Shown here in pieces: positions 5,259-39,858 of a stretch of DNA of 64,000 nucleotides (its first letter is position 1; each line of letters starts with the position of its first letter). Origin of the DNA: an uncultured Methanolobus sp. (GTDB taxonomy: Archaea > Halobacteriota > Methanosarcinia > Methanosarcinales > Methanosarcinaceae); NCBI GenBank assembly GCA_963675495.1, contig OY776215.1:576001-640000 (forward strand). The letters run 5' to 3'. The position numbers and the translations under genes are program-made. Below the pieces are notes generated by a model. That model saw only the letters and a program-made list of their open reading frames with translations. It had not been told where the DNA came from and ran no database searches.

Positions 5259-6440
5259 ATGACAAAGAAAGTAGTACTTGCTTATTCAGGCGGGCTTGAC
5301 ACTTCCGTGTGCATCCCGCTGCTTAAAGAGGAATACGGCTACGATGAAGTTATCACAGTAGCGGTAGATGTGGGACAGCCACAGGAAGATGTTAAACAGG
5401 CTGAGGAAAAGGCGCAGAAGATCAGCAACAAGCACTTCACACTCGACGTGCGTGAAGAATTCGTCAACGATTATATCTTCCCGCTAATCAAGGCCAATGG
5501 TGACTATGAAGGATACGTTATGGGCACATCCATCGCACGTCCGCTTATCGCTAAGAAGGTCGTTGAGATAGCAGAGCAGGAAGGAGCTGTTGCACTTGCA
5601 CACGGTTGTACCGGCAAGGGTAATGACCAGCTTCGATTCGAGGCAGTTTTCCGCCTGACCGACATGGATGTCATTGCACCCATGAGGGACATGAACCTCA
5701 CACGTGACTGGGAGATCGAGTATGCACAGAAACATGGCATACCTGTGACCGTCACGGCCGCAAAGCCATGGAGTGTTGACGAGAACATATGGAGCCGCAG
5801 TATAGAGGGTGGCAAGCTGGAAGACCCTGGATTCATTCCCCCTGAGGAGATCTACCAGTGGACCGTTTCCCCTGAAGCAGCTCCTGAAGGCCAGACAATA
5901 GTGATCGGTTTTGAGAACGGTGTCCCTGTCTCACTTGACGGTGAGAAGATGGATGGTGTCGAACTTATCATCAAACTGAACGAACTCGCAGGTTCCCATG
6001 GTGTCGGCAGGACCGATATGATCGAAGACCGTGTTCTGGGACTTAAAGCACGTGAGAATTACGAGCACCCTGCAGCAACAGTTCTCCTTACAGCCCACAG
6101 GGACCTTGAGAAGCTTGTGCTTACCAGGGCAGAGCTGAAATTCAAGAAAACTGTGGACGAACAGTGGTCTGAACTTGCCTACTATGGTCTTGTTGACGAG
6201 CCGCTCTACCACGACCTGAATGCATTTGTTGATAAGACCCAGCAGCGTGTCAGCGGTACTGTTACCGTGAAACTGCACAAGGGTAGTGTCATCATACTTG
6301 CACGTACATCCCCGTATGCTCTGTACTCAGAAGACCTTGTGTCCTTTGACAGTGCGACCATTGACCAGAAGGATGCTGAAGGCTTTGCCAAGTATCACGG
6401 GTTCCAGGCAAGGATGTATAAGAAGGTTATTGAGAAGTGA
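5259..6440 (+). CDS. argG: Argininosuccinate synthase
   Basis: AYSGGLDTS and [14 protein letters not shown] signatures. Confidence 0.98.
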
Positions 6441-6447
6441 AGTTAAG

Positions 6448-6495
6448 ATTGTGTGCCGTGGAGCATACAATTTTTTTCTTTTGTTTTCTTTTTTG
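6448..6495 (+). terminator. Putative terminator after argG: short hairpin plus long T-tracts
   Basis: ATTGTGTGC-CGTGGA-GCATACAAT stem-loop (one G-U pair) followed by TTTTTTTCTTTTGTTTTCTTTTTT. Confidence 0.55.
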
Positions 6496-6554
6496 CATTT
6501 GATTGAGCATTCTGGTTGGTTTCGATGTTTCTTTTGTTTTGGCTTTGATGGAAT

Positions 6555-6578
6555 GTGCCGCCTGCGGCGGGATGGATG
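6555..6578 (+). repeat. Cassette-boundary motif copy
   Basis: GTGCCGCCTGCGGCGGGATGGATG. Confidence 0.9.
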
Positions 6579-6698
6579 ACTGTGTGTTGGCTATTTTGCA
6601 AATATATTCTATGAATGTTAGCTGATTCTAAATTCATTGGATATCATGCGTACAGAATCCATATATAGTAAAGAAGCAAATAGAGAATGGGATACTGA

Positions 6699-6923
6699 AT
6701 GATGACAAAATTCACTGCATACATAGAGAGAGACCTTGAAACTGACTGCTATGTCGCCATCGTACCAGGAATTCCAGGGGCTCATACTCAGGCTGATACA
6801 CTTGACGAATTACATGCCAGATTAAAAGAGGTGATAGAACTCTGTCTTGAGGAAATGAATCCGGAAGAAAAAGGGTTGATTCCCGAGTTTGTAGGTGTTT
6901 CACAAATTGAGGTTACCGTATGA
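6699..6923 (+). CDS. hicB: HicB-family antitoxin
   Basis: YVAIVPGIPGAHTQADTLDEL HicB motif; ATGA overlap with hicA. Confidence 0.88.
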   Translation: MMTKFTAYIERDLETDCYVAIVPGIPGAHTQADTLDELHARLKEVIELCLEEMNPEEKGLIPEFVGVSQIEVTV

Positions 6924-7153
6924 GTAAGCTACCGTTGGTAGATGCCAAAAAAATGGAAAAGATATTATATCATCTTGGGTTTGAAAAGGTCAGACAAAAA
7001 GGTAGCCATGCATTTTATAGGCACGCTGATGGCAGAACAACTACTGTTCCTTTTCATTCAAGTAAGAAGCTTGCACGACCTCTCATTAGGGTCATACTTA
7101 GTGAAATTAACATTAACATTGAAAAGTATAATGAATTGATTAGGAATATTTGA
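6920..7153 (+). CDS. hicA: HicA-family toxin (mRNA interferase)
   Basis: LGFEKVRQKGSHAFY...TTVPFH HicA motif. Confidence 0.9.
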   Translation: MSKLPLVDAKKMEKILYHLGFEKVRQKGSHAFYRHADGRTTTVPFHSSKKLARPLIRVILSEININIEKYNELIRNI

Positions 7154-7279
7154 TTCTTTAATGTTGCTTAGATTCCTTAGTAACTATACATTTATGTGGA
7201 AAAATATTACACATCTAACATATCCAAGCGTGTAGACGAGATTATGAACAAGTTTCATAACTCATGACTATATGTTCAT

Positions 7280-7292
7280 CCACTTGCGGTGG
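7280..7292 (+). repeat. Degenerate cassette-boundary motif
   Basis: CCACTTGCGGTGG versus consensus CCGCCTGCGGCGG; same position relative to the HEPN remnant as the 11732 copy. Confidence 0.6.
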
Positions 7293-7339
7293 AATGCTGT
7301 TTTCGTGGGATACTCATATGAAAAATCAAAACAAGAGGA

Positions 7340-7465
7340 CTATGGATCCAGTTCGTTCAATAAATCCTCAATCACCGGCTTTGCTTCAGGAATACCTTCT
7401 TTTACACTAAGCCAGACAACTTCAAGATTGACGCCAAAATAAGCGTGTATTAATTTGTCACGAAT
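7340..7465 (-). pseudogene. HEPN (DUF86/HepT) toxin remnant with large internal deletion
   Basis: Reads IRDKLIHAYFGVNLEVVWLSVKEGIPEAKPVIEDLLNELDP*; the central part present in the 11810-12150 copy is missing. Confidence 0.85.
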
Positions 7466-7474
7466 GCAAATCCC

Positions 7475-7783
7475 TCAGATAGCTTCGACTTCTTTCAGTA
7501 TATATTTACCTATATTTGGCTTCAGTGAATCTTTCATGACAAGGTCAACTTTAACTCCCAGGGAATCGGAAAGATAGTTCTCTAAATGAACAAATCTAAA
7601 AATAGTAGGTGTCCTGCTGAACTCTACCAGTACATCAAGATCACTTTTCGGAGTATTCTCTCCCCGCACATAGGATCCAAACAATCCAATGTAACTGACA
7701 TTATACTCCTTTTTTAGCTGCGGTAGCATTTCATACAGCTGCTTTCTGTATTTTTCAATGTCTTTTTTATGTTGCATGATCAT
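7475..7783 (-). CDS. Minimal nucleotidyltransferase (MNT/MntA-type antitoxin)
   Basis: GLFGSYVRGENTPKSDLD (GSx10DxD); near-identical to 12160-12471. Confidence 0.92.
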   Translation of the reverse strand: MIMQHKKDIEKYRKQLYEMLPQLKKEYNVSYIGLFGSYVRGENTPKSDLDVLVEFSRTPTIFRFVHLENYLSDSLGVKVDLVMKDSLKPNIGKYILKEVEAI

Positions 7784-7931
7784 CCTTAAAAAGGTCTTAT
7801 TTGCATATATGTTAGTTTCATATGTATAATTATTTGTCTTGTTTGGAAAATTAATGAATGTTAAAAAGATTGATCTTTACTTGAAATGTAGTATGCAGTT
7901 CTTGCTTATTATTACTCAACAGTTTGGGAAT

Positions 7932-7954
7932 ATGCCGCCTTCGGCGTATGCTTG
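7932..7954 (+). repeat. Cassette-boundary motif copy
   Basis: ATGCCGCCTTCGGCGTATGCTTG. Confidence 0.88.
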
Positions 7955-8091
7955 TATTGGTCTTGTAGGGGAAAACAATCACGAATATATATCCTATGTA
8001 TGACAACCTATATACATAAGTAAGGACAATAAATATTTGATGCCAATATGGCTGATAATCCACATAAGTAAGATAACAGGAGAATAAGCTA

Positions 8092-8235
8092 ATGGCAAAA
8101 CCAATTGAACTTGGGCTGGTGCTGGAAGGTGAAGATGCAAAAGAGTTTTGGGAAAACGAGAGAAAGCCAGCTACAAAACAACAGATAAAAATGTTCAAAG
8201 AAGCCAGGAAAATATCAGATCGTATTCATTTTTAG
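8092..8235 (+). CDS. Small (47 aa) putative antitoxin upstream of GNAT toxin; not in the ORF track
   Basis: MAKPIELGLVLEGEDAKEFWENERKPATKQQIKMFKEARKISDRIHF*, preceded by AGGAG RBS, 14 bp upstream of the GNAT ATG. Confidence 0.7.
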   Translation: MAKPIELGLVLEGEDAKEFWENERKPATKQQIKMFKEARKISDRIHF

Positions 8236-8249
8236 TCCTGTTATTTGGT

Positions 8250-8762
8250 ATGTCTAAGTCTCAATTTTCTATTTCTCCTCTTTCTGAGAGAAACGGTGTT
8301 TTGTCTTTTTGCTGTCAGAACAAGGATCTAAACGACTTTTTAAAAAATGATGCCTTTGGTAATCAGGAACAACTCATAAGCAAAACTTATGTTTGTTATT
8401 ATCAGAAAGATTTTGCGGGGTATTTCACTTTGACCACGGATACTATGAAAGTCAAATATATTGATGATTCAGATTGTGTTGATGGTTTTCCATATTCCAG
8501 ATACCCGGCTGTCAAACTCGCAAGACTTGCCACTGATAAGAGATTTGAAAGGAGAGGAGTTGGCTCTTACATGCTGTTTGCAGCAATAGGTTTAGCTTAA
8601 AGGGTCGCAGATATCACTGGATGCAGATATATTACAGTTGATTCAAAACCCGAATCTATAGGATTTTACACCAAATATGGATTTAAGATCGTTAAGACTT
8701 CTCTTAAAAAAGACTATACCTCCCTATATCTGAACATGCAACCCATAGTAAAAGGCATTTAG
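8250..8762 (+). pseudogene. GNAT acetyltransferase toxin (AtaT/TacT-like) with premature stop
   Basis: FCCQNKDLNDFL, PAVKLARLATD, RRGVGS motifs; in-frame TAA at 8598-8600, after which the frame continues as RVADITGCRYITVDSKPESIGFYTKYGF to TAG at 8762. Confidence 0.85.
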
Positions 8763-9021
8763 GCAACTATTTTTCATTATTAAGCAGTGCTTACAAATTT
8801 TGTATGATCTCACAAATATTCTTTTTTGTCTCAAAAAATATCTTCTTGGTTCAAAGGTTTGATTATTTTTAAATTACGATATTACCGAGGATTTTGTCAG
8901 GTACATGACTATTACCCATATATTGCCAATCAGTATTGAATGCATCAGCCATGATAACTTCATTAAATGTGTGATCAATGTCCAATTATTTTATGAATAT
9001 GATAATCAGCAGTACAAGAAT

Positions 9022-9044
9022 GTGCCGCCTGCGGCTTATGGCTG
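9022..9044 (+). repeat. Cassette-boundary motif copy
   Basis: GTGCCGCCTGCGGCTTATGGCTG. Confidence 0.88.
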
Positions 9045-9093
9045 CACAGAATTTAAGAAATATACTCGAAAACTTATACGATAAAATACTAAC

Positions 9094-9402
9094 TCATTTC
9101 AGAAGTTCAATAAACTCCTTGACTGTAAGCCCCGATACCCTGATCAATTGCCTCAGAAGACCTGGTTTTAACTACCTGTGCTTTGGGACGGTCAGTGTTA
9201 TCCTGGAGCCTTCCTTTCTCAATACGACATGACTTCCTACTTGCCTGTGAGGATACCAGCCTGCTTTAGAAAAAGCTTTAATTGTATCCATTCCGAAAAT
9301 AACAGGTAATTTCGGTGTTCGGCTATCACTTCAACGATCTTGCAGGAAGGTCTTGTCATGCAGACATTAGATTCGTCCTCAGCAAGTGATTCAAAACATG
9401 CA
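9094..9402 (-). pseudogene. Decayed hicBA pair (HicB C-terminal fragment plus disrupted HicA)
   Basis: HicA-like PKLPVI...KAGWYPHRQVGSHVVL...TVPKHR*LKPGLLRQLIR with lost start, internal TAG and a frameshift before GLTVKEFIELLK; upstream ACFESLAED...IVEVIA resembles a HicB tail. Confidence 0.8.
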
Positions 9403-9438
9403 TGTTTCTGTTTTTTTGTCTATATGTGATAATGCAAT

Positions 9439-9461
9439 GTGCCGCCTGCGGCGTATGGTTG
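9439..9461 (+). repeat. Cassette-boundary motif copy (consensus)
   Basis: GTGCCGCCTGCGGCGTATGGTTG. Confidence 0.92.
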
Positions 9462-9477
9462 CAGTGAATAAACTACT

Positions 9478-9696
9478 CTATTCTCCAATCCACTCATCTC
9501 TGGATATATGAGCCTGTTTCAGGATTCTCTGCAGCAGATCTACACTAATCCTGCCTTTGTGAGGATTAGGGACTGTCAGAACAATATCTCCTTTTGTCAT
9601 GAAAGAATGTTTGCCACCTGAAAAAGGACCTTCGAATTCCAATTCCCTTAGTCGTTTGACAAGGTTTCGTTGGGTGACAGGAGTCAGCTTAGGCAA
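9478..9696 (-). CDS. hicA: HicA-family toxin
   Basis: FEGPFSGGKHSFM...TVPNPH motif; probable TTG start overlapping the hicB stop. Confidence 0.85.
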   Translation of the reverse strand: MPKLTPVTQRNLVKRLRELEFEGPFSGGKHSFMTKGDIVLTVPNPHKGRISVDLLQRILKQAHISRDEWIGE

Positions 9697-9940
9697 TAGC
9701 AACTTCTCCGGAGTCTTTTATTACATGATTGCCCATAGGTGGAAGGGTTAAGCCTTTTCTGAGTCTGAAAACTATCCATTCATCAATGGTATCTTCAAGG
9801 TTTTTCCTGCACTCTTCAAGAGTACTACCTGTAGCCCACACACCCTCGAGTTCAGGCACCTCGCCATAGTAGGGCTCATCATCTTCAATTATCTCATATC
9901 TGGCTTTCTCAAGAGCTGTCTGGATATATTCAATAAGCAT
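9689..9940 (-). CDS. hicB: HicB-family antitoxin
   Basis: YYGEVPELEGVWATGSTLEECRKNL HicB motif. Confidence 0.88.
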   Translation of the reverse strand: MLIEYIQTALEKARYEIIEDDEPYYGEVPELEGVWATGSTLEECRKNLEDTIDEWIVFRLRKGLTLPPMGNHVIKDSGEVAIA

Positions 9941-10075
9941 AATTGGTACCTGCATAAATTTTGTTCTGTGCTATGTATTCTTAATATAGTTTCATGAGTA
10001 TATGAACAATTTGTTTGATGAGATGTACTGGTTTAAAATTATGTATCCCTTTTTGCTACTCAGCAATATGGAAAA

Positions 10076-10098
10076 GTGCCGCCTGCGGCGTATGGTTG
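10076..10098 (+). repeat. Cassette-boundary motif copy (consensus)
   Basis: GTGCCGCCTGCGGCGTATGGTTG; 10059-10098 is identical to 10770-10809. Confidence 0.92.
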
Positions 10099-10194
10099 CA
10101 TATTCCAAAAAAATCATGTCCCATCATTAATTAAAGCAGACTATATGAAGGAGAAATTATTAATATCATATTAATACCATGTTATTATGATACT

Positions 10195-10434
10195 ATGGTT
10201 AAAGCAATAATTAATATTGATGACAAGACCAACCGGGTGCTGAACATAGTTAAAGCCAAGTATGGCCTGAAAGATAAGAGCTCGGCTATTGAACTTGTAA
10301 CAAAACAATATGAAGAGGAACTCCTGGAGCCAAAGCTTAGACCTGAATATATAGAAAAGGCTAAAAGGATAATGGCCCAGGACGCAGTGGACGTAGGTAC
10401 AGTAGACAACTTGAGGGAAAGATTGGGTATCTGA
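10195..10434 (+). CDS. Antitoxin (DUF2683-like, ribbon-helix-helix type)
   Basis: MVKAIINIDDKTNRVLNIVKAKYGLKDKSSAI; directly upstream of a RelE-like gene. Confidence 0.78.
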   Translation: MVKAIINIDDKTNRVLNIVKAKYGLKDKSSAIELVTKQYEEELLEPKLRPEYIEKAKRIMAQDAVDVGTVDNLRERLGI

Positions 10435-10435
10435 A

Positions 10436-10699
10436 ATGTATTATTTGAAGATCGAACCTGATCTTGAGAAAACACTTAAAAAACTGGCTAAGAAGAATAA
10501 GAAACAATTAGGGATGATTCTCAGTAAAGCTGAAGAAATTGTTGAAAATCCCCATAGATACAAAAATCTAAGGGCACCACTGAATATGTGGAAGAGAGTA
10601 CACATAGACAGACATTTCGTATTGGTTTTTTCGGTGGATGAGGAAAGCAATAGTGTCACACTTGAAGACTATGCCCATCACAATGACATCTACAAATAA
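10436..10699 (+). CDS. RelE/ParE-superfamily toxin
   Basis: 87 aa basic protein; NPHRYKNLRAPL...RVHI...FVLVF...YAHHNDIY. Confidence 0.85.
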   Translation: MYYLKIEPDLEKTLKKLAKKNKKQLGMILSKAEEIVENPHRYKNLRAPLNMWKRVHIDRHFVLVFSVDEESNSVTLEDYAHHNDIYK

Positions 10700-10786
10700 G
10701 ATTGTCAGTATTTGAGTAGCCGGGAATTGGCAGAACTCTAATATTTTTGTGAGTTTTTGATAGTTACTTCTCAGCAATATGGAAAA

Positions 10787-10809
10787 GTGCCGCCTGCGGC
10801 GTATGGTTG
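10787..10809 (+). repeat. Cassette-boundary motif copy (consensus)
   Basis: GTGCCGCCTGCGGCGTATGGTTG. Confidence 0.92.
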
Positions 10810-10914
10810 AACTACGTAAAATACCACCTATTTAAAATCGATTTCATTTTGAAATATCCTGCATGAAATTTAATAAGAATGATAACATATGTATGTGCAT
10901 TGAGATGTGATATT

Positions 10915-11205
10915 ATGGTGGAAATGCAGATCGAGAAATACAAAAAAACCATAATCCCGATATTGCTAAAAAATGATGTGGATGAAGCAGGCATTTTTGG
11001 TTCGTTTGCAAGAAATGAAGCAAAATTGGATAGTGACATCGATATTCTTGTTCATTTCAAGGACCGAAAAAGTCTATTTGATCTTGCCAGATTAGAACTG
11101 GAACTCGAAAAGGAAGCTCAAAGAAAGGTAGAAGTCATTACTTACGATTCCATAAATCCCCTTATAAGGAATCGAATCCTGAAGGAAGAAGTGAAGATAT
11201 TATGA
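10915..11205 (+). CDS. Minimal nucleotidyltransferase (MNT antitoxin)
   Basis: GIFGSFARNEAKLDSDID motif; ATGA overlap with the HEPN gene; start uncertain. Confidence 0.9.
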   Translation: MVEMQIEKYKKTIIPILLKNDVDEAGIFGSFARNEAKLDSDIDILVHFKDRKSLFDLARLELELEKEAQRKVEVITYDSINPLIRNRILKEEVKIL

Positions 11206-11546
11206 AAGATGATGAAGTGTTCATTGAACATATTATTGATTCTATCGAGAAGATAGAGTACTTCACAAACGATAAGAAAAAAGATGATTTTCTGGAAGAT
11301 GTGCAACTTCAGGACGCAACGATAAGGAGAATAGAGATTATCGGTGAAGCATCAAAAAACATCTCCGATGATCTCAAAGGACAACATCCAGATGCCCCAT
11401 GGAGTGAAATGGCAAGAACGAGGGACAAATTGATACACGGTTACTTTGGAGTAGACCTTGGACTTACATGGGACATTATTGAACATGATCTGCCTGAACT
11501 CAAGACTAAAATGAAACAAATACTTGATGAAATTAAGTATAAGTAA
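11202..11546 (+). CDS. HEPN (DUF86/HepT-like) RNase toxin, intact
   Basis: IEIIGEASK, PWSEMARTRDKLIHGY (Rx4HxY). Confidence 0.92.
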   Translation: MKDDEVFIEHIIDSIEKIEYFTNDKKKDDFLEDVQLQDATIRRIEIIGEASKNISDDLKGQHPDAPWSEMARTRDKLIHGYFGVDLGLTWDIIEHDLPELKTKMKQILDEIKYK

Positions 11547-11731
11547 GGAGATGGAGCTATTCCATGATTCTTCTTTGCGTGTTCATCCACTTGCAGCAGG
11601 AGAAGTTAGTCTGAGTGAGATCGAAGCTGAGAACTGCTAAAGATCTCTTTGATATTTCTACTGGGAAGTATTGCTTTTGATTTAAAATATTATAACAAAT
11701 TATTGTTTTCGCTCCTTAGCAGCTCAGCAAA

Positions 11732-11754
11732 ATGCCGCCTGCGGCGGGTGGTTG
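11732..11754 (+). repeat. Cassette-boundary motif copy
   Basis: ATGCCGCCTGCGGCGGGTGGTTG. Confidence 0.9.
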
Positions 11755-11809
11755 TTTTCTAGAGATAAACAAAAACAAGAAAAACCTTGAAAACTACAAA
11801 AAAATAGAA

Positions 11810-12150
11810 TTATGGAGGTAATTCGTTCAGCAGGTTCTCGATCACCGGCTTTGATTCCGGAATACCCTTTTTTACACTGAGCCAGACAACTTCAAGATTA
11901 ACACCAAAATAAGCATGTATCAGTTGTCCCGGATGCCTGCCAGATCCTTCCATGGAACTGAGGTGTATGTTTGCCTTATATCATCAGGAATGTTCTTTGC
12001 TGCTTCACCGATTATTTCCAGAACCCTTATAACAGCATACTGGGTTTTGACATCTTCGAGAAAATCCTCAAAGGTGCATTGATCCACAAAGCTCTCAGCT
12101 GCTTCCATGGAATTGTATATGTCCTGTACATAATCTCTTACGTCACGAAT
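11810..12150 (-). pseudogene. HEPN (DUF86) toxin frameshifted within the catalytic motif
   Basis: LEIIGEAAKNIP...PWKDLAGIRD, then a 1-nt deletion (GAC AAC TGA instead of GAC AAA CTG); LIHAYFGVNLEVVW continues in another frame; ATT in place of a start ATG. Confidence 0.85.
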
Positions 12151-12159
12151 GCAGATCCC

Positions 12160-12471
12160 TCAGAGAACTTCTACTTCATTCAGTATGTATTTGCCTATGT
12201 TTGGTTTCAGCGCATCCTTCATGACAAGGTCTACTTTTACCCCCAGAGAATCGGAAAGATAGTTCTCTAAGTGAACAAATCTGAAAATCGTATGTGTCCT
12301 GCTAAATTCTACCAATACATCAAGATCACTTTTCGGAGTATTCTCTCCCCGTACATAGGAACCGAACAATCCTATATAACTGATATTATACTCCCTTTTT
12401 AGCCGCGGTAGCATCTCATGGAGCTGTTTTCTGTATTCTTCTACGTCTTTTTTGTGTTGTATGGGTATCAT
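12160..12471 (-). CDS. Minimal nucleotidyltransferase (MNT antitoxin)
   Basis: GLFGSYVRGENTPKSDLD; paralog of 7475-7783. Confidence 0.92.
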   Translation of the reverse strand: MIPIQHKKDVEEYRKQLHEMLPRLKREYNISYIGLFGSYVRGENTPKSDLDVLVEFSRTHTIFRFVHLENYLSDSLGVKVDLVMKDALKPNIGKYILNEVEVL

Positions 12472-12788
12472 TTAAACGGTCTTATTTGCTTTATATGTTT
12501 GTTTCATATGTATAATTGTTTGTCCTGTTTGGAGAAACAAATGAATTTTAAAAAGATTGATCTTTACCTGAAATATAGCATGTACTTCTTGCTTTTTACT
12601 ACTCAACATGAGAGTGCTGCTTGTAGGATCAAGACTGAAAATTGCTGAAGATCTCTTTGAAGTCTGTATTAGAAAGTGTTGCTTCAGATTAGATATTAGG
12701 CTGGAAATGTAGGATCGTTACCTGATCGATTTTTGTTTTAGATATTTTATGCCTCTTCTTTTATTTTACTAGGCAGCAGTATAGGAAC

Positions 12789-12811
12789 GTGCCGCCTGCG
12801 GCGTATGGTTA
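12789..12811 (+). repeat. Cassette-boundary motif copy (last of array 1)
   Basis: GTGCCGCCTGCGGCGTATGGTTA. Confidence 0.9.
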
Positions 12812-13085
12812 TGTTGGTCTTGAACACTTAGTTCGGTTACTTTGCTAGTTAGTATCAAGGAAACTTTTGTTTTTAAAACTATAAAAGTGCCTTCAAACCC
12901 CAGTTAAATAGCCTTTTTACTACGCTGATCCACCTAACAGGCCATCAAAATCTCAGTTCATATCAATTATTTTTATCTTTATCCTAAACAGTCACTAGTG
13001 ATCGAATTATATTTTTTTGAAGAAGAAAAACAAAACGAACATTTTATAAAAGTGTTCTGTCTTTTCCTGCAACGAGGAGTATCAT

Positions 13086-14168
13086 TTGTCAGAAAAACAA
13101 GAACCCTGTTACGTAAAAAGATCATTTTACAATGAAGATATCCATTATGGGATACATTCCAGGAAGACGTACACAAGCTCACCTCAGGATGCTAAACCGG
13201 ATAATACCCTCGAGCTTCCAACATTTATCCCGAATGCACCCATGAGAGTATACTTTGACCCGACATACCGATGTAACCTCAGATGCAGACATTGCATTAC
13301 TTCCTCATCACCTGACATACAAGCTGAAAATGAACTGGACATCCTGCAGATAAAGAAACTCCTGAACGAACTGGAATCCATCGGGGTACTGGAGCTGGCC
13401 ATCACCGGAGGAGAACCGTTCATACATAAGGATATCTTTGAGATAATCGAATTCGTGCAGGATGGCAACATGAACCTGAGCATTACAAGCAACGGAACAC
13501 TACTAAGCCCGGAAAAAGCAAAAAAGCTTTCTGAGCTGGATGTATCCGATATAAGGATCAGCCTGGATGGTTGTGAGAGTGTGAACGATGACATCAGAGG
13601 CGATGGCTCATACAAAAAAGCCATGACAGGACTCAGAAACCTGATACAGGCAAATGTCCCAGCCACCGTAAGAATGACACTCACCAGTAAGACTCACGAA
13701 GGACTCGAACACCTATTCCATGACCTGCAGGACGTAGGAGTTACAAAACTCAAAGCCGCCATCATCAAGGAAGCAGGTAACGCCACCCTGGAAGAGAACT
13801 CAGACCTCTTCGGCTACCAACCCACAGAAGATGCTGTTCAAAGCTTAATGAAACTCGGAGAAGAAAATAACATATCTGTGGAACTGTCAAGCGAGGATTT
13901 TAATCTTGAACCTGAGCAATCAGGAGACAAAAGATTAAGAGCTGCTGAACACCATACATGCGGAGCAGGACATGAAACAGCCTACATCTCACCAATTGGC
14001 AATGTATTACCCTGCTCATCCATGCCCCACGTGATTTTAGGAAACATAGGAAATGACAGTTTCACAGATGTCTGGGAAGGTCGAGTTACAAAGAAATACA
14101 AGACTTTAGCTCGCCTTTCTGAAGAAAAAGCGATGTGCAAGGCAAATTTTGTAAAACTCTGGCTATAG
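13086..14168 (+). CDS. Radical SAM protein with short SPASM/twitch-type C-terminal domain
   Basis: CNLRCRHC, TGGEPF, ISLDG and CGAG...ISPIGNVLPC motifs; TTG start uncertain. Confidence 0.85.
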   Translation: MSEKQEPCYVKRSFYNEDIHYGIHSRKTYTSSPQDAKPDNTLELPTFIPNAPMRVYFDPTYRCNLRCRHCITSSSPDIQAENELDILQIKKLLNELESIGVLELAITGGEPFIHKDIFEIIEFVQDGNMNLSITSNGTLLSPEKAKKLSELDVSDIRISLDGCESVNDDIRGDGSYKKAMTGLRNLIQANVPATVRMTLTSKTHEGLEHLFHDLQDVGVTKLKAAIIKEAGNATLEENSDLFGYQPTEDAVQSLMKLGEENNISVELSSEDFNLEPEQSGDKRLRAAEHHTCGAGHETAYISPIGNVLPCSSMPHVILGNIGNDSFTDVWEGRVTKKYKTLARLSEEKAMCKANFVKLWL

Positions 14169-32602: not shown

Positions 32603-32877
32603 TTTTGTTCCTCTATATAGCCACATTATTAGTAATATGTTATATAGTTTTTTATTTATAAATTTAGATTGTGGAACAAGTGATCTTCGAGGAATTATAG
32701 GATACATCTTAGGGTATTTGTGTGCATTGGTAAGATTTTTGGAAAAATGAAGGTGGTGTGGATACTTAGATGCAATACAACCATCCGCCGCATGCGGCAC
32801 GGTCCATTGTCACTGATATAGAAAGACATATGCAGGAGCAACGCAAAGTGAAGAATCAGAATGATAAAATCCTGAGT

Positions 32878-33164
32878 TTAACAACGGTTAAATCTTTGCC
32901 TTAATTTATCGTAAATCGAAGATCTATAATCTACAGCATAAAAAATAATATTGTGCATGACATCAATATCAAACACTATTCTGTATTTCCCCACCCTATA
33001 CCTATAATATTCGAAACACTGCAATTGCTTGGTATTAGCTGTAAAAGGATCAATTAAATTATGCACTCTATTGAACGAACGATCTTTTTGACATCAGCAG
33101 GATGCTTCTTACGAATTGCTTTTAAATCTTTCTTAATTAAAAACATTCGTAAAGATACCTTCAT
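32878..33164 (-). pseudogene. RelE-family toxin, frameshifted
   Basis: MKVSL...IKKDLKAIRKKHPADVKKIVRSIE in one frame, then DPF...YRYRVGKYRIVFDID...RSSIYD in another. Confidence 0.75.
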
Positions 33165-33167
33165 ACC

Positions 33168-33347
33168 TCATTCTAATCCAAATTCATCTTTGAGCTCTTT
33201 AAGAGTACAAACATTGCCTTCTTTAAGATCTCTTTTTGCTTCCTCGATGCGTTTAATAGTCTTTGAGCTCAAAGGCATAGAGTCAACATCAGTAATTGTA
33301 GAACAAGATCTTTTCGTTTTAGAACATGGATGAGTATTTAGAACCAT
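33168..33347 (-). CDS. Putative antitoxin (59 aa); not in the ORF track
   Basis: C-terminus LSSKTIKRIEEAKRDLKEGNVCTLKELKDEFGLE typical of archaeal RelE-partner antitoxins; stop lies 3 bp before the RelE ATG. Confidence 0.65.
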   Translation of the reverse strand: MVLNTHPCSKTKRSCSTITDVDSMPLSSKTIKRIEEAKRDLKEGNVCTLKELKDEFGLE

Positions 33348-33689
33348 TTATATACAATATCTCATGCACACTTAAATAAGTAGTACCAAAAATGGCTCTT
33401 TAGAAATCTCCAATATTCGAACTTCTCAGCGGTTCGTATTTTAAGAAGGTAGCAAATTTATCTTTCCGACCTGCTAATTTAAGCTTTATTGTCGTAACAA
33501 TTATTGTTTAAACAATAATACGTAACATCTACCAGAATAGATTTACGACGTAGCTATGAACTATCAGGAATACAACGCAACCACCCCGCAAAAGGCGGCA
33601 CATTCCGACACCATAAAAGAACAGGACAAAACCGATATCCCATCAAAAATAGACCCACAAAAACATTTCCAGCTCCAAATACAAAAGAA

Positions 33690-33953
33690 TCAATATATTA
33701 CATCATGGTGATCATAATCAAGTATCATGATTGCTTTTTTATCCGCATCTATTTCATAGATCAGCACAAATGAAGAGTCAATATGTACCCTCCTTGCACC
33801 GTGCAGATCACCACGTAATGGTTTATAGTGATACGGATTCAAGATTATCTGTTGAACTTTCTTGCTGATAATATTCATCTGCTTAGGATTCTTTTTAGCA
33901 AGCTTCATGAATTTCTTATCAGCAAGCTCGGATACAACAACGCAATACTCCAT
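33690..33953 (-). CDS. RelE/StbE-family toxin
   Basis: NPYHYKPLRGDLHGARRVHIDSSFVLIY...YDHHDVIY; homolog of 10436-10699. Confidence 0.87.
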   Translation of the reverse strand: MEYCVVVSELADKKFMKLAKKNPKQMNIISKKVQQIILNPYHYKPLRGDLHGARRVHIDSSFVLIYEIDADKKAIMILDYDHHDVIY

Positions 33954-33958
33954 TATGT

Positions 33959-34177
33959 TTACCCGTAGCGTTCAGAAAAATCACTTACATGGACAAATTT
34001 ACCCTTCCTGATATTGTCAAGTTTTTCCAGGTATTCCTGACTTGCTTCCGGTTCCCTGGATATTACACTCTCCATGAACATCTGTATCTGTTTGCTCATG
34101 CTCATACCATGTGATTTACACAGGGCAGAGAACTCCTTATATGTATCTTCATCCACATTGAAAGTCTTTAATACCAT
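33959..34177 (-). CDS. Ribbon-helix-helix antitoxin
   Basis: MVLKTFNVDEDTYKEFSALCKSHGMSMSKQI RHH pattern, upstream of RelE. Confidence 0.78.
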   Translation of the reverse strand: MVLKTFNVDEDTYKEFSALCKSHGMSMSKQIQMFMESVISREPEASQEYLEKLDNIRKGKFVHVSDFSERYG

Positions 34178-34193
34178 TGAGATCACACCAATT

Positions 34194-34268
34194 ATTTAAT
34201 ATTTAATAATCTTATTTAATGTTTAATAACATTATTTAATCATATTTAATCATATTTAATCATATTTA
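34194..34268. promoter_or_regulatory. ATTTAAT iterations, including (ATTTAATCAT)x3, upstream of the RHH-RelE pair; putative autoregulatory operator
   Basis: Six ATTTAAT heptamers plus one GTTTAAT directly upstream of the antitoxin start. Confidence 0.45.
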
Positions 34269-34499
34269 CCCCCATACATATCAAGTTTTTTCAATTGATC
34301 AAAATGATATAGATCATTTAAACTTTGTAGAAAGATTCTACTTTAAATAAGCTGCAATACAACCATCCACTGCAGGCGGCACTATCCACAATTACTGCAA
34401 AAAAGAAGATATATAGCCTGCTGATCAAAGAACGATCTCCAGCATTATCAGCGTATTTTCCATAACACATAAATAGTACGGAATTAAATCATAATTATT

Positions 34500-35930
34500 A
34501 TGTTCCGTAATTTCATTAATCGTGTCCATGAACTGGAATTCCTTAACAGGGAATATAGTTCAAAAGATCTTTCTTTCACCGTCATCTACGGACGCAGGCG
34601 AGTAGGCAAAACAGAACTTATCCAGCAGTTTGTGAAAGACAAGCCCCATATCTTCTTTCTGGCGGACATGAGAGGCACACGATCCAATACCCTCAGATTC
34701 AGGAAAAAAGCTTCAGGCTTATTCGATGATATAGAACCTGCAGCAGAGGCATTTGATGATGTGTTCGAATACATAAGTAAAAAATGGAAAAGTTCCAAAA
34801 AGCTTGTCATAGTTATCGATGAGTTCTCCTATCTGGCACAGACCGATAGATCCATACCGTCAGTATTCCAGCTTATCGTTGATGAGATACTCAAAGGAGG
34901 ACATTTCCATCTGATACTCTGTGGCTCATCCATTTCCATGATGGAAAAAACAACTCTTTCCCATTCAAGTCCTCTTTATGGAAGGAGGACAGGACAGATC
35001 AAGGTCATGCCACTGAGTTTACGCCACATGACTGGTTTTTCCCCGGAATCAACACCAGAAGAGCTTTTAAAAATATATGGTGCAACTGGAGGAATTCCTT
35101 TCTACCTCAGATTCTTTGATCCTGGAAATGATCTTTATGAGAACATAGGACAACACATATTTTCCAAAGATGCAGTATTATATGCCGAAGGCGAGTTCCT
35201 TCTTCGCGAAGAATTGAGAGAGCCGGCAACTTACATGAACATCCTTTATTCCATCTCCAAAGGTAGCACAAAAGCAGGAGAGATCGCTGCTGGCGCTTTC
35301 ATTGAAACAAAGGATCTATCATACTATACAGATACTTTGATGAGGCTTGGCTTTATCAGGAAAGAGCACCCTGTTGCAGAAAAAACATCTACCCGTAAAA
35401 CGATCTACGTTATAGATGACCCTTTTCTGCGCTTCTGGTTCAGATATGTACTGATACATAGAGATTCCATAGAAGCAGGTGATAATTCGCATGCCATCCA
35501 GGACCTGGATAAGAGCTACGACCGTTACCTGGGGGAAACGTTCGAACAGGTATCCAAAGAGATCCTTACATACCTCAATTTACAGGATAAACTCCCTTTC
35601 AGGTTCAGATCCATAGGCAGACAATGGGGAAAGATACCTAATATACCAAAAGGTAAAAATGACTATGAAATTGACCTGGTGGCCCTTGATCAGGATTCAA
35701 AGAACATACTCTTCTGTGAATGCAAATGGCAGAAGCAGAAGGTCAATACAGATGTCTACTTCAACCTGAGAGAGAAAGCGTGTCATGTAAAGTGGTTCCC
35801 CGAGAGAAAAGAACACTTTGCACTTATCAGCAGATCGGGTTTCACAAAAAAGATGCATGAAATAGCAAAGCAGGAGAATGTTCTGTTACTTACCCTGCAT
35901 GATTATTTGTCCAGATCTTCTGCTGAATAA
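34500..35930 (+). CDS. Archaeal AAA ATPase with C-terminal DUF234/PD-(D/E)xK nuclease-like domain
   Basis: FINRVHEL, YGRRRVGKT Walker A, IVIDEF Walker B, LYGRRT, EIDLVA...FCECKW. Confidence 0.9.
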   Translation: MFRNFINRVHELEFLNREYSSKDLSFTVIYGRRRVGKTELIQQFVKDKPHIFFLADMRGTRSNTLRFRKKASGLFDDIEPAAEAFDDVFEYISKKWKSSKKLVIVIDEFSYLAQTDRSIPSVFQLIVDEILKGGHFHLILCGSSISMMEKTTLSHSSPLYGRRTGQIKVMPLSLRHMTGFSPESTPEELLKIYGATGGIPFYLRFFDPGNDLYENIGQHIFSKDAVLYAEGEFLLREELREPATYMNILYSISKGSTKAGEIAAGAFIETKDLSYYTDTLMRLGFIRKEHPVAEKTSTRKTIYVIDDPFLRFWFRYVLIHRDSIEAGDNSHAIQDLDKSYDRYLGETFEQVSKEILTYLNLQDKLPFRFRSIGRQWGKIPNIPKGKNDYEIDLVALDQDSKNILFCECKWQKQKVNTDVYFNLREKACHVKWFPERKEHFALISRSGFTKKMHEIAKQENVLLLTLHDYLSRSSAE

Positions 35931-35983
35931 GTTCAAGAATACAACCTCACTGCAAAGGCAACACATAAAAATAATATTGTGCA

Positions 35984-36044
35984 TTACGACTAAAAGGCGT
36001 AAGGGTAGAGAAAGCCCACGCACTTTAGTCATGGGAGCAGTCAC
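35984..36044 (+). mobile_element. Miniature IS200/IS605-type end remnant
   Basis: Two imperfect hairpins, TTACG-ACTAAAAGG-CGTAA and CCCACG-CACTTTAGT-CATGGG, ending GCAGTCAC as in IS605-family right ends. Confidence 0.5.
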
Positions 36045-36265
36045 AACCTATCAATTCATGCGTTGTTGTCATAACAATTATTGTTTAAACAATAATAAGT
36101 AACATCTACCAGAATAGATTTACGATGTATCAATGAACTATCAGGAATACAATACAACCATCCGCCGAAGGCGGCACGGTTCACAATTACTGAAAAAAGA
36201 TGAGTTATAGCCTGCTGATCAAAAAATATATATATATAAAAAATAAAAAAAATAATCAAAGGAAC

Positions 36266-36862
36266 TCAAAACATTATCTTTGCCTTTATCTGAGCTAATT
36301 CATGTTCTATTGTTGAGATCCTCTCGTCAAGATGAGACCTGAAATCATCCCTGTTCAACCGAACCTCGGATGCTATTTCTGTTCTGTTTTGGTCAATCTT
36401 TTCACCAACCACATCGATCTTATCACCCAATCCATCGATCTTCCCACTTACGACTTCGACTTTACTGCCAACCGAATCAACCCCATCACCGACCCTGTCG
36501 ATCTTCTGCCCGAGATTCGAGTTCATTTCACGCATATACCTCACAGCTGCATCCATTCGCTCATAAGTTGCTGTGGTCAGATCCTCGTCTCTGACTATCT
36601 CAAATGTACCATACTCGCCAGTTGCTTTTGTGTAGACTACATCGATATTCGTTACACGTATAGGATATTGAGTGATGTTGACTTTTTCAAGTAACTCCCT
36701 GATGCTGCCCTCTGTACCCTCACAGACAACTTGCACCGTGCCATCATCGAGATTTTTGACATATCCATTAAGAGCCAGATCAAAAGCTATTTCGTCAATG
36801 AAATCCCTGAAACCTGCTTTCTGAACTCTGCCATGTATTATGACCTCTGCACGCTTCTTCAT
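36266..36862 (-). CDS. Acylphosphatase-domain protein with C-terminal coiled-coil/heptad repeat tail
   Basis: GRVQKAGFR, GYVKNLDDGTV; tail with KIDRVGD/KVEVVSG/KIDGLGD/KIDVVGE repeats. Confidence 0.85.
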   Translation of the reverse strand: MKKRAEVIIHGRVQKAGFRDFIDEIAFDLALNGYVKNLDDGTVQVVCEGTEGSIRELLEKVNITQYPIRVTNIDVVYTKATGEYGTFEIVRDEDLTTATYERMDAAVRYMREMNSNLGQKIDRVGDGVDSVGSKVEVVSGKIDGLGDKIDVVGEKIDQNRTEIASEVRLNRDDFRSHLDERISTIEHELAQIKAKIMF

Positions 36863-37015
36863 AAGAGTTGATTTTTCCTGAAGCAATATAAACGTTATTA
36901 TCATATCTCATTAACAAGCCAGAAATAATCACAGAACTTAAACAACCACCCGCCGCAGGCTGCACACACCATCACCAAAAATGTAAAAAGAAAATCCGGA
37001 GAATAGTCTTTGCCC

Positions 37016-38275
37016 TCATTCAAGCAACCATTTCCACACAGGCCTAACACTTATTTTCCTGCCATCCATTTCAAGCGCTTCCTCCGTATCTTCCGTGAGT
37101 ATGAGACCTTCTTTCAGCCCGTACTTATCCATAGCTTCCAGAAGTCCTGCTATCTCTCTTTTTTCATTTGACCATTCCATCCTCTGAGTAACCTGTATTG
37201 CTTTTATGATATGTCCCTTCTCCATCAATATGAAATCACACTCATTCTTATCCACGTGGTAATAGATATCATGCCCCCTGTTTTTCAATTCAAGGAATAC
37301 AATGTTCTCAAGTGTTTTGCCTGTATCCTTTGAGAATTTGAAGGCAAGAACGTTCATCAGTCCTGTATCTATGATATAGGCCTTCTTCTTTGAATATATC
37401 TGCTTTTTAAGAGAGTAATCAAAAACATTGATCGTAAAGATCAGATAAGAGTTCTCCAGATGATCTATGTAATTTTTCACTGTTGTCTGGCTGCCAATTC
37501 CTAGGACGTTCTTTAACCTGTTATAGCTTATCTCAGTTCCGGGATTAGTTATCAGATAATACGCAAGGGATCTTATTGCAGTCTCGTCCTTAATACCATA
37601 TCTTGCGATAATATCCCTGTACAGGATGTTATCATAGAGGTTCCTGATTATGTCCTTATTTCCGTATTTATAATACTCTGGAATGCCGCCATTTTCAAGA
37701 TACTGACTGAATTCTTTTTTGATCCTTGCTCTCTCCTCTGTCAGATAAAACTCCTTTTCAGTTTCTATGCCTTTTGAACCCATCAGCTCTTTGAATGAGA
37801 AAGGATAGAGTTCAAGTTTCACATGTCTTCCGGTAAGCTTTGTCCCCAGCTCCCTGCTCATCAAAGAAGAATTTGAGCCGGTGATGTAGAATTTGAAACC
37901 CCGGTCATACATCCGCCGTATGAATGCTTCCCAGTTGGGTATGTTCTGTATCTCATCAAAGAAAAAGACCTTGCTCTCTTTTGATGTTTCCAGAAATGAT
38001 TCATACAGGGCATTGAAATCGCCTACTTTGAAGTCAAGCAACCTTTCATCTTCAAAATTCATGTAATATATGTTATCTTCCGGATAGTATCTTTTTTTTA
38101 TCTGTTTTAAAAGGGTGCTTTTACCCGCACGTCGCAGACCAGTGATAACCACTATATGAGGAATTTGGGAGTAACTTTCTATTTCTTCAAGCTTCTGGCG
38201 CTTTATTGTCGGCACCTCCATTTCAAACTCCTGCTTTTGCTCTGCTATAAGCTCCTTTATCTGCATAATATCCAT
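37016..38275 (-). CDS. ATP-binding protein (AAA_14 + DUF4143)
   Basis: GLRRAGKST, FFFDEIQ, TGS, LTGR, IDTGL, LENIVF, ECDF; start uncertain. Confidence 0.9.
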   Translation of the reverse strand: MDIMQIKELIAEQKQEFEMEVPTIKRQKLEEIESYSQIPHIVVITGLRRAGKSTLLKQIKKRYYPEDNIYYMNFEDERLLDFKVGDFNALYESFLETSKESKVFFFDEIQNIPNWEAFIRRMYDRGFKFYITGSNSSLMSRELGTKLTGRHVKLELYPFSFKELMGSKGIETEKEFYLTEERARIKKEFSQYLENGGIPEYYKYGNKDIIRNLYDNILYRDIIARYGIKDETAIRSLAYYLITNPGTEISYNRLKNVLGIGSQTTVKNYIDHLENSYLIFTINVFDYSLKKQIYSKKKAYIIDTGLMNVLAFKFSKDTGKTLENIVFLELKNRGHDIYYHVDKNECDFILMEKGHIIKAIQVTQRMEWSNEKREIAGLLEAMDKYGLKEGLILTEDTEEALEMDGRKISVRPVWKWLLE

Positions 38276-38577
38276 AAATTGCATTCTGTGATGAATGCAT
38301 ATATATATTTCCATTTAAAATGGAGATTATTACTCACAAATTGTCATTGATAATGGAGATTATAGCAATGATATCTCCATTTAAAATAGAGACATTGCAC
38401 TCCAAAGTACATTATACGAAAAGTCTATGAACGCATATCGACCAAAACCATCCCGCTGCAGGCGGCACAGTCCATCAATACTGTTGTAACAAGAATGTAT
38501 AGATATTCTCTAGGCAATGTTGCAAAGAAAAAAGAACATAAACACATGTGATCAGTTATGATCTTTATTGCATCCAT

Positions 38578-39858
38578 TCACTCAAGCAGCCATTTCCACA
38601 CAGGCCTCACGAAGATCTTCCTTCCATCCCTTTCGATCATATCTTCAGTATCCTTTGTAAGTATGAGACCTTCCTCCAGATCATAGGTCTGCATTGCTTC
38701 ACGTAAACCTTCGACCTCACGTTTTTTGTTGTCCAGGTTCAGCTCCTTTGTCACCTGAATAGCATTGGTTATTTTATTATCTGCTTTTATCAGAAAATCG
38801 CACTCATATGTACCTTTATGGTAGTAAACTTCGTTCTGTCTTCTTATAAGCTCTATAAAGATCAGGTTTTCAAGCAGTCTGCCGTAGTTCTCTGAGAACT
38901 TGAAAGACACTGCATTTATCATACCAGTATCAAGGCAGTATATCTTCTTTGGATTTGCAAGTTGTTTCCTGAGAGAATAATCAAATTTTTTGATGGAATA
39001 TAATAAGTATGAGTCTTCTGCGTAGCTCAGGTACTCTTTTACCGTATCTGCAGATATTTCCAAGACATTTGCTATGCTGTTGTAAGAAAAAGGCTTGCCA
39101 ACATTTGAAATAATGAAGTATAGCAAGTTTATTACATCCCTGTTATTCCTCAGTTTATGTGGAAAGATTATGTCTTTCAGGTATATGGTCTCATAATAAT
39201 TTTTTAAAAGCTCTTCTTTGATGTCATTGTCCCCTTCAAGAGAGATCCGGGGGAAAGAACCATGCTTGAGATATTCCTCGAACTCCAGTTTTTTCTCACC
39301 GGATGTCAGCCTTTTGAGTCCTTTGAAATCCAGATATTCTTTAAAGGTTAGTGGAAAGACCGTTACTGCAAGGTATCTTCCTGAAAGACGTGTGATGGTC
39401 TTCTTTTTAAGTAGGGATGATGTGGAACCCGTCAATACAAATTTCAGGCGCTTGTCAGTATCGTATAATATTTTCAGTGTCTGCGTCCAGTACCTGAAGT
39501 TCTGGACCTCATCAAGAAAAATGTAGTATCTTTCTTTTTTCGTTGCCGCGATATGATCTTCAATGATACCCGAAAGAAGAACGGCACTCTCTGACCTGCT
39601 CTGGAACACCGGTTCATCAAGGTTTATGTAAAGTACCGACATGGCCTCGTTTTCAGGCAGTTCAAGACTGCTGATAAGCTGGTATATGAGAGTTGACTTG
39701 CCCGTCCTTCTTGCACCAAGTATTAGCAGTATCTCTTCCGTACCCATATATTTGGCTAAACGTGGATAATAATGAAGACGAGGTATACTCGTACTGTAAC
39801 TTTTTCCGAACCACCCCGGATTCTGCTTTTCCAGCACTTCTTCGATCAGTTGTTCCAT
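38578..39858 (-). CDS. ATP-binding protein (AAA_14 + DUF4143)
   Basis: GARRTGKST, IFLDEVQ, LSGR, LDTGM, LENLIF, ECDF; paralog of 37016-38275 (both end RPVWKWLLE). Confidence 0.9.
   Translation of the reverse strand: MEQLIEEVLEKQNPGWFGKSYSTSIPRLHYYPRLAKYMGTEEILLILGARRTGKSTLIYQLISSLELPENEAMSVLYINLDEPVFQSRSESAVLLSGIIEDHIAATKKERYYIFLDEVQNFRYWTQTLKILYDTDKRLKFVLTGSTSSLLKKKTITRLSGRYLAVTVFPLTFKEYLDFKGLKRLTSGEKKLEFEEYLKHGSFPRISLEGDNDIKEELLKNYYETIYLKDIIFPHKLRNNRDVINLLYFIISNVGKPFSYNSIANVLEISADTVKEYLSYAEDSYLLYSIKKFDYSLRKQLANPKKIYCLDTGMINAVSFKFSENYGRLLENLIFIELIRRQNEVYYHKGTYECDFLIKADNKITNAIQVTKELNLDNKKREVEGLREAMQTYDLEEGLILTKDTEDMIERDGRKIFVRPVWKWLLE

Follow-up and report, generated by a model that had tools for sequence, protein, structure and literature searches.

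The 64-kb stretch of DNA analyzed here in full (hereafter the window; positions 576,001 to 640,000 of contig OY776215.1, from an uncultured Methanolobus sp.) contains a DUF2683-RelE gene pair lying between two identical 40-bp direct repeats, and the question raised by this locus is how two members of a variable repeat family came to be identical. A sequence-only reading of the same DNA had described the enclosed unit as the most recently integrated cassette. The unit lies in a hypervariable, repeat-punctuated array following the argG gene, and our preferred interpretation, held with slightly less than even confidence, is that the identical 40-mers are the boundary repeats of a recent recombination or insertion of this RelE cassette. 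That the unit is a cassette bounded by recombination sites is supported by the data presented below, whilst recombination at the repeats, the recency of the event and its direction (insertion versus conversion) are what we infer from them. The description as the most recently integrated cassette is plausible in that a recent insertion is one reading of the locus, but it is not established, as gene conversion between neighboring repeats fits equally well.

An identical repeat pair and the gene pair between its members

The 40-mer CTCAGCAATATGGAAAAGTGCCGCCTGCGGCGTATGGTTG is present as an exact match in two repeats, designated R4 and R5, both on the + strand and with a spacing of 711 bp (Table 1), confirming the earlier report of its identity at the two positions. 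No further match with up to three mismatches was found in the window, and 100 shuffles produced 0 matches. The flanks of the two 40-mers diverge at once, with A versus T on the left and CATATT versus AACTAC on the right. When 14 window copies of the repeat were aligned on their core and compared in 91 pairs, the R4/R5 pair (10059/10770) scored 40/40, the next best pair scored 33/40 and the mean was 26.5. Over the 17 bases to the left of the core the corresponding values were 17/17, 13/17 and 8.1, in agreement with the earlier observation that other copies differ outside the core. Adjacent copies in the window scored 28–31/40 and some non-adjacent pairs reached 32–33/40. As this pair stands far above all other 90 pairs, the identity is specific to it and does not reflect family-wide conservation, and the identical pair is real and non-random.

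The repeat family to which R4 and R5 belong is approximately 45–50 bp in length, with a core, GTGCCGCCTGCGGCGKATGGTTG, that contains a 12-bp GC palindrome. A search with a 19-base core detected 11 window copies at up to three mismatches, and a profile search detected 15 (eight on the + strand and seven on the - strand, forming arrays 1 and 2 of Table 1) with six more in the rest of the 2.87-Mb genome; the profile match for R4 spans 10050–10102. The block conserved in 53 distinct copies has the form TCAG ... ATGGAATGTGCCGCCTGCGGCGGATGGTTG followed by a weaker yATTG, and since the pattern used to collect these copies demanded a match in the central 25 bases, only the flanks measure conservation without bias. 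The 40-mer covers this block from one base before TCAG through GGTTG, omitting only the weakly conserved last five bases, yATTG. The 40-mer nearly coincides with this block, and the proposal that the identity marks the functional extent of the site is plausible.

Within the core, the palindrome GCCGCCTGCGGC is 87–93% invariant per position pair in 92 distinct copies, and a change on both sides that keeps a pair was seen in only two of the 92, among the pairs of two pairing schemes tested. As the palindrome barely varies, covariation provides no evidence for or against a folded form. The invariance fits a protein with a two-fold symmetric core that recognizes its sequence in duplex DNA, as opposed to a mere hairpin, and the asymmetric arms would give the site its direction.

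The gene pair enclosed by R4 and R5 is intact, as originally noted, with both open reading frames (ORFs; 79 aa and 87 aa) uninterrupted. Its layout fits that of a type II system, the 79-aa frame coming first, the 87-aa frame starting after a 1-base gap and the promoter region containing a palindrome, and the pair is a putative toxin-antitoxin module on this basis. Profile matches of the 87-aa protein point to the RelE/ParE/YafQ superfamily, with a full-length match to NCBIfam TIGR00053 (YafQ family) at E 8e-19 and 68 bits (cut-off 87.25), 27.5 to RelE_StbE (cut-off 27.9) and 21.2 bits to Pfam ParE_toxin (cut-off 23). As all three scores fall below the respective cut-offs, the RelE label given to this putative toxin would hold at superfamily level only. 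A sequence search against solved structures gave no match at E <= 0.1, and relatives of the 87-aa toxin in other Methanolobus records show 84–89% protein identity. The likely promoter/operator block ahead of the pair is conserved in three other species (genomes G010, G009 and G002), whereas the stretch between this block and the repeat is not.

Cassette turnover in the region following argG

Genes carA, carB and argG (5259–6440) precede array 1, and the first repeat lies 108 bp past the argG stop codon. Whereas argG occurs in all 36 genomes of the genus, the radical-SAM gene that follows array 1 occurs in only two of the 36, which makes the region after argG a hot spot of turnover. Examination of the 12.5 kb after argG in 16 relatives revealed repeats in eight, with 14 of 15 copies on the argG strand, and in two genomes (G019 and G049) one copy directly follows argG as in the window. 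At up to two mismatches, 17 of 24 other Methanolobus genomes contained the 23-base core, compared with none of 16 genomes from other genera within the order, and a reversed control gave 0. Within the window, the repeats are co-oriented in both arrays (8/8 and 7/7) though the cassettes occupy both strands.

For every array 1 cassette there are homologs of 73–93% identity in other species, where the cassettes follow one another differently and occupy different loci. Homology begins 30–90 bp past a repeat and stops at or shortly after the last stop codon. The repeat tends to travel with the upstream side of a cassette. The DUF2683-RelE unit recurs in G010, G009 and G002 in other contexts at 84–88% identity, preceded in each by a repeat decayed to a varying degree, and homology stops approximately 10 bp past the toxin stop codon. 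That the unit acts as a single cassette of a repeat-punctuated array is supported.

The junction between the HicAB and MNT-HEPN cassettes is found in different forms in different genomes. In G007 a HicAB homolog, a single repeat and an MNT-HEPN homolog follow one another with no RelE unit, whilst in G013 and G042 HicAB is next to MNT-HEPN, again without the RelE unit, and two repeats approximately 230 bp apart are present at the junction. In the window two identical repeats and the RelE unit occupy this position, and these layouts indicate that the junction exists in at least three states. In G048, HicAB is followed by a decayed repeat, ~570 bp, a RelE unit and another repeat, and G002 has a HicAB unit adjoining a RelE unit, as in the window, with 74% identity over both.

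To these comparisons can be added data from sequencing runs, nine of 11 listed runs containing part of the stretch and no RNA run being listed. Four runs (X4–X7) were examined, all stored as contigs, in which 31-letter words cannot bridge the 40-bp duplicate and rare variants are dropped. In X6, a cold-seep metagenome, a 31.7-kb contig carries an argG 94% identical to that of the window (65 other letters plus six gaps over 1070 bases). This contig leaves the window at 6569, the end of the core of the first repeat, contains 1940 other letters in place of 6570–9467, and rejoins the window at 9468, six bases past a repeat, matching 9468–10088 with one difference in 621 bases; X7 also breaks at 9468. 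The X6 contig ends at 10088, inside the 40-mer, as would be expected where a duplicate is longer than the 31-letter word of the assembler. Other X6 pieces correspond to 10069–10617 (eight differences), 10617–10799 (none) and 10780–11639 (two), the last of these running on into a second RelE-type unit that is only ~85% identical. The X6 lineage differs from the window by whole cassettes, with breakpoints at repeats.

The three adjacent cassettes at 9468–11639 are 98.5–99.8% identical to X6 contigs whilst the adjoining argG is only 94% identical, which suggests recent transfer of this block, or of single cassettes, between lineages. Compared with X6, the RelE unit shows 8 differences in 549 bases and its two neighboring cassettes 3 in 1481 (Fisher p = 0.002); this higher divergence would fit exchange of the RelE unit alone, although metagenome contigs can mix strains. 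Sequencing depth in X6 was 61.8 for the argG-HicAB contig versus 25–31 for the RelE and MNT-HEPN pieces, a difference that a mixed population might explain, but these are means over whole contigs and nothing was concluded from them.

Table 1. Coordinates of the repeat arrays, the enclosed unit and the dispersed repeat copies (window positions unless a contig is named)
Feature	Position	Strand	Description
Array 1	6548..12816	+	Eight co-oriented repeats at ~6548, 7906, 8998, 9413, 10050, 10763, 11706 and 12764; cassettes in order: HicB-HicA; MNT(-); GNAT-like pair; gene-less 365-bp unit; HicA-HicB(-); DUF2683-RelE; MNT-HEPN; frameshifted HEPN with MNT(-)
R4 (left 40-mer)	10059..10098	+	Exact match; core GTGCCGCCTGCGGCGTATGGTTG plus 17-base left arm CTCAGCAATATGGAAAA
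Likely promoter/operator	10156..10194	+	Near-palindrome TTAATATCATATTAA (10160-10174) and AT-rich TATA-like stretch just before ATG; read from sequence
Putative antitoxin, DUF2683	10195..10434	+	ORF of 79 aa; Pfam PF10884, E 7.8e-10, 39.3 bits (cut-off 27)
RelE/YafQ/ParE-superfamily toxin (putative)	10436..10699	+	ORF of 87 aa, starting 1 base past the antitoxin stop codon
3' tail	10700..10769	+	Cross-species homology stops at ~10702-10708; last ~62 bp unique, ending T-rich
R5 (right 40-mer)	10770..10809	+	Exact match; followed by AACTAC (unlike the family), then the MNT-HEPN cassette
Array 2	32773..40018	-	Seven inverted copies at ~32773, 33572, 34355, 36149, 36939, 38446 and 39994; cassettes include a RelB-RelE pair, a ParE fragment, a DUF234 ATPase, an acylphosphatase-domain protein and two DUF4143 ATPases
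MITE-like repeat copies (G000 contig C1)	~1471469-1471713; 2328553-2328858; 2806701-2806907; 2850088-2850321; 2857220-2857452

Recent insertion weighed against other origins of the identity

In the interpretation we prefer, small self-contained units, mostly toxin-antitoxin and ATPase genes, would be gained, lost and re-ordered through recombination at a directional site of ~45–50 bp, whose near-invariant 23-bp core with its 12-bp GC palindrome is most likely read as double-stranded DNA by an unlinked, host-encoded protein. A circle or donor segment bearing one repeat would have undergone recombination with a single repeat such as that lying between HicAB and MNT-HEPN elsewhere. The whole shared block would have come out identical on both sides, and the identity would then record a recent event at both cassette boundaries. 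Homologous recombination of the RadA type at the repeats may take the place of a dedicated enzyme.

A number of observations weigh against a recent insertion and are set out in this and the following three paragraphs together with the alternatives on which they bear. Conservative exchange between the site of a circle and a resident site gives two hybrid sites, so that identity over 40 bp needs either identical parents or conversion of the whole tract. The identity tract is the full homology block, so homologous recombination or gene conversion would also give it. A counterpart of R4 is present beside HicAB in G013, G042 and G048 (at a distance of approximately 95–105 bp from the start of hicB) and precedes RelE in G002, G009 and G010, and a counterpart of R5 lies 23–36 bp ahead of the MNT-HEPN homologs in G007, G013 and G042. 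The HicAB-RelE adjacency is common to G002 at 74% identity and so looks old. As both repeats have counterparts elsewhere and the HicAB-RelE layout occurs in a distant species, the unit is not necessarily new at this locus. These data are consistent with gene conversion, by which the RelE cassette would long have been situated between HicAB and MNT-HEPN and the two repeats, 711 bp apart, would have been homogenized by homologous recombination or repair. In favor of conversion are the attachment of both repeats to neighboring cassettes in other species, the contiguous HicAB-repeat-RelE arrangement of G002, the lack of a recombinase nearby and the limits of the tract, which begins within one base of the start of family conservation (TCAG) and ends at GGTTG, where the right flank turns non-family. 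However, typical left arms are ~8/17 identical and heteroduplex through them would be hard unless the copies were already similar, adjacent copies do not in general resemble each other more than distant copies do, and the greater divergence from X6 of the RelE unit than of its neighbors is left unexplained. Gene conversion is a possibility to be taken seriously, although on balance an unlikely one.

Evidence for an allele preceding the insertion was sought in the contigs of X4–X7. The joint of 10058 to 10810 expected of an empty site was found in none of these, though such contigs cannot bridge a 40-bp duplicate, and X4, which bears the same organism label, has the same layout with no empty-site joint. 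Short-sided joints in X5 and X7 (sides of 21–26 letters) were repeat matches and were set aside. For the same lineage, neither the single 40-mer lacking the 711-bp unit nor the 711-bp circle, both of which the sequence-only reading had named as products to look for, was found in the contigs of the four runs or in public contig collections. The exact 40-mer gave 0 matches each in public metagenome and genome contig collections, from which the window's own record was possibly left out, and among 16 copies in six further loci no second adjacent pair showed a long exact match, the longest exact run there being 30. This last finding is also difficult to reconcile with staggered-cut duplication, in which an integrase would insert the cassette after cutting one strand at each end of the 40-bp site, gap filling then duplicating the site. 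The model is comparable with duplication of the clustered regularly interspaced short palindromic repeat (CRISPR) at spacer uptake and of the target of casposons, and it predicts what is seen here, a perfect duplicate spanning almost exactly the conserved block. No other perfect adjacent pair was found in those six loci or among the other 13 window copies, and both repeats have equivalents at matching positions in other species. Moreover, neither Cas1 nor a Y1 (HUH, IS200/IS605) transposase had a match in the genome, and we regard staggered-cut duplication as very improbable.

No recombinase was detected in the window, nor by Pfam scans among the array ORFs, and the six Phage_integrase matches of the genome (tyrosine recombinases) all lie at least 77 kb away from it. 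Among the 49 of 147 ORFs scanned beside argG in 16 relatives there was likewise no recombinase and only one TnpB-like protein. An enzyme supplied from elsewhere forms part of a further explanation, an integrase-less integron array (CALIN) served in trans by an integron integrase acting on folded attC sites. Such attC sites are 55–141 nt in length and contain imperfect inverted repeats (R''-L''...L'-R', where R' is GTTRRRY) that fold as single strands. Folding of this type was rejected for the Methanolobus repeat, single-strand folds giving only a 4-bp GC hairpin, with five of six z-scores between -1.5 and +0.5. The conserved block of ~45 bp also has no conserved R''/R' boxes at its ends, and GTTRRRY fits the right copy only. 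Co-oriented sites, small toxin-antitoxin-rich cassettes and an anchor beside a conserved gene are all as expected of a CALIN, and archaeal integrons and CALINs have been published, although the main text of that report contains no mention of Methanolobus or Methanosarcina-type archaea (Ghaly et al. 2022; PMC9668308). With only a 4-bp mini-hairpin in the folds, no such boxes and no integrase in the window, a CALIN is extremely improbable here.

The repeat core is also found outside cassette arrays. In G006, with 77 core matches at up to two mismatches, it is internal to a miniature inverted-repeat transposable element (MITE) of ~350–420 bp with 18-bp terminal inverted repeats, as seen in 20 of 20 fetched copies (L039–L058). 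Of the six dispersed copies in the source genome, which sit between ordinary genes, five are longer and MITE-like, with modules in the opposite order to G006 (Table 1), and the one at the fibrillarin gene, the sixth, shows similarity in the core alone. Cassette boundaries are therefore not the sole setting of the repeat, which is found at array boundaries and also as MITE cargo. These copies are what would be expected of a passive repeat, REP- or MITE-derived (REP, repetitive extragenic palindromic) or terminator- or insulator-like, with cassettes changing by ordinary insertion, deletion and transfer and the identity of R4 and R5 due to common descent or chance. Similarly, the T-rich run just upstream of the repeat (T fraction 0.54) is such as an archaeal terminator would have. 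In contrast to the G006 elements, the window copies correspond to the central ~47 bp of the MITE alone (model positions ~216–268); they have no terminal inverted repeats, and none of the 25 genome matches to the 18-bp terminal repeat falls in the window. A passive repeat would also leave unexplained the strict co-orientation within each array regardless of gene strand, the lineage breakpoints at repeats and the three junction states at the same inter-cassette repeat, and a score of 40/40 against at most 33/40 is too extreme for chance within the family. We consider this explanation improbable.

Other potential origins of the site were examined. Mimicry of a transfer RNA (tRNA) end was rejected after comparison of three copies with 50 tRNA genes and their flanks, the best match being 15 bases in a flank at E 0.09. 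Mimicry of the argG end was also rejected, the argG 3' region matching the rest of the window only through its own repeat copy. No Rfam family matched 6000–13500 at E <= 1.

Relation to known systems and further features

Integron-like capture is well worked out in bacteria with IntI and folded attC sites, whilst archaeal cases come mainly from metagenome bins. The Methanolobus arrays resemble integron arrays and CALINs, archaeal integrons included (Ghaly et al. 2022; PMC9668308), in having co-oriented short sites and small swappable cassettes, many of them encoding toxin-antitoxin or defense functions, and in being anchored beside a conserved gene with a content that varies between relatives. 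They differ in their sites, which are ~45–50 bp with a 12-bp GC palindrome and have no attC fold, no R/L boxes and no adjacent IntI, and in their cassettes, which have their own promoters and lie on either strand, with the repeat tending to the upstream side.

Comparison can also be made with the pdif modules of Acinetobacter plasmids, small modules often encoding toxin-antitoxin systems and bounded by 28-bp Xer sites in alternating orientation. These similarly have short boundary sites that a host recombinase encoded elsewhere would use, but the Methanolobus sites are direct chromosomal repeats with a GC palindrome and are not dif-like. REP elements, bacterial interspersed mosaic elements (BIMEs) and MITEs share with the repeat described here a genus-specific, short palindromic sequence dispersed between genes, the core indeed being present in the G006 MITE, whereas array copies comprise only the central ~47 bp and are strictly co-oriented at cassette boundaries. 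Integrases of archaeal viruses and plasmids act on attP and attB sites that share tens of bp, which are duplicated on integration. An insert between perfect direct repeats of ~40 bp is reminiscent of this, but the Methanolobus insert of 671 bp contains no integrase, and its repeat is multi-copy and restores no gene.

No published description of the Methanolobus repeats or arrays was found in full-text searches on Methanolobus toxin-antitoxin repeats and MITEs, archaeal integrons and archaeal toxin-antitoxin cassettes, and the arrays of this methanogen can be seen as a new form of integron-like cassette organization. A more extensive proposal is that of a cassette system belonging to Methanolobus itself, with a ~45–50-bp site whose 23-bp core would be read as duplex by a distant host recombinase, serving for entry and exit of toxin-antitoxin and defense cassettes and also carried in a MITE, and with the 40-bp pair representing a fresh insertion that displays the full site; in its entirety this appears distinctly doubtful. 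Methanolobus is a cultivable and genetically approachable methanogen genus, and its cassette arrays have a different type of site without a recombinase linked to them. Should the site indeed be a target of recombination, the genus would offer a route to a new archaeal recombinase-and-site pair and insight into the circulation of toxin-antitoxin and defense genes among methanogens, and the reaction would best be caught in progress at the identical pair.

With regard to the elements bearing the repeat, the MITE also carries a second GC-hairpin module, and elements of ~1 kb bounded by terminal inverted repeats with no ORF of at least 80 aa also exist. At the fibrillarin locus, outside the window (G000 contig C1, 1948760–1950545), the last 149 bp of the gene are duplicated with 87% identity around a 1.6-kb insert that contains one repeat copy and a DUF4143 ATPase gene, the old gene end remaining downstream. 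This is the mark of an element bringing its own copy of the end of its target gene.

TATA-like words are enriched ~3.5-fold at 41–50 bases before GGAATG, with 16 in this 10-base bin versus ~4–5 in distant bins (69 copies). They sit ~29–38 bases upstream of TCAG, for example at 10033–10040, 10739–10746 and 11683–11690. This signal is weak and confounded by the T-rich tract; if real, it would place the start of transcription at the left edge of the repeat.

The two arrays of the window flank a 20-kb low-GC (28–31%) island of sugar and polysaccharide genes. The RelB-RelE pair of array 2 is ~45% identical, by eye, to the toxin encoded between R4 and R5, and the three ATPases of array 2 (DUF234, DUF4143) are large. 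In the last cassette of array 1, the HEPN (HepT-like) gene at 11810–12108 on the - strand is broken into two frames (62 aa and 47 aa) that overlap and correspond to profile positions 6–88 and 90–119, and this frameshifted toxin, beside an intact MNT, is probably dead. The gene-less unit (9087–9405) is conserved at 74–79% in G006 (4 kb after its argG), G009, G002 and G048; it contains no ORF with a family match and has no Rfam match, and may encode a small protein or RNA. Finally, the identity between X6 and the window stops at 11639, within an element of ~86 bp (11559–11646) located just past the HEPN stop codon of the MNT-HEPN cassette, which is 84–87% conserved in G015, G007, G045 and G046 and also 80% alike after the MNT-HEPN homologs of G013 and G042.

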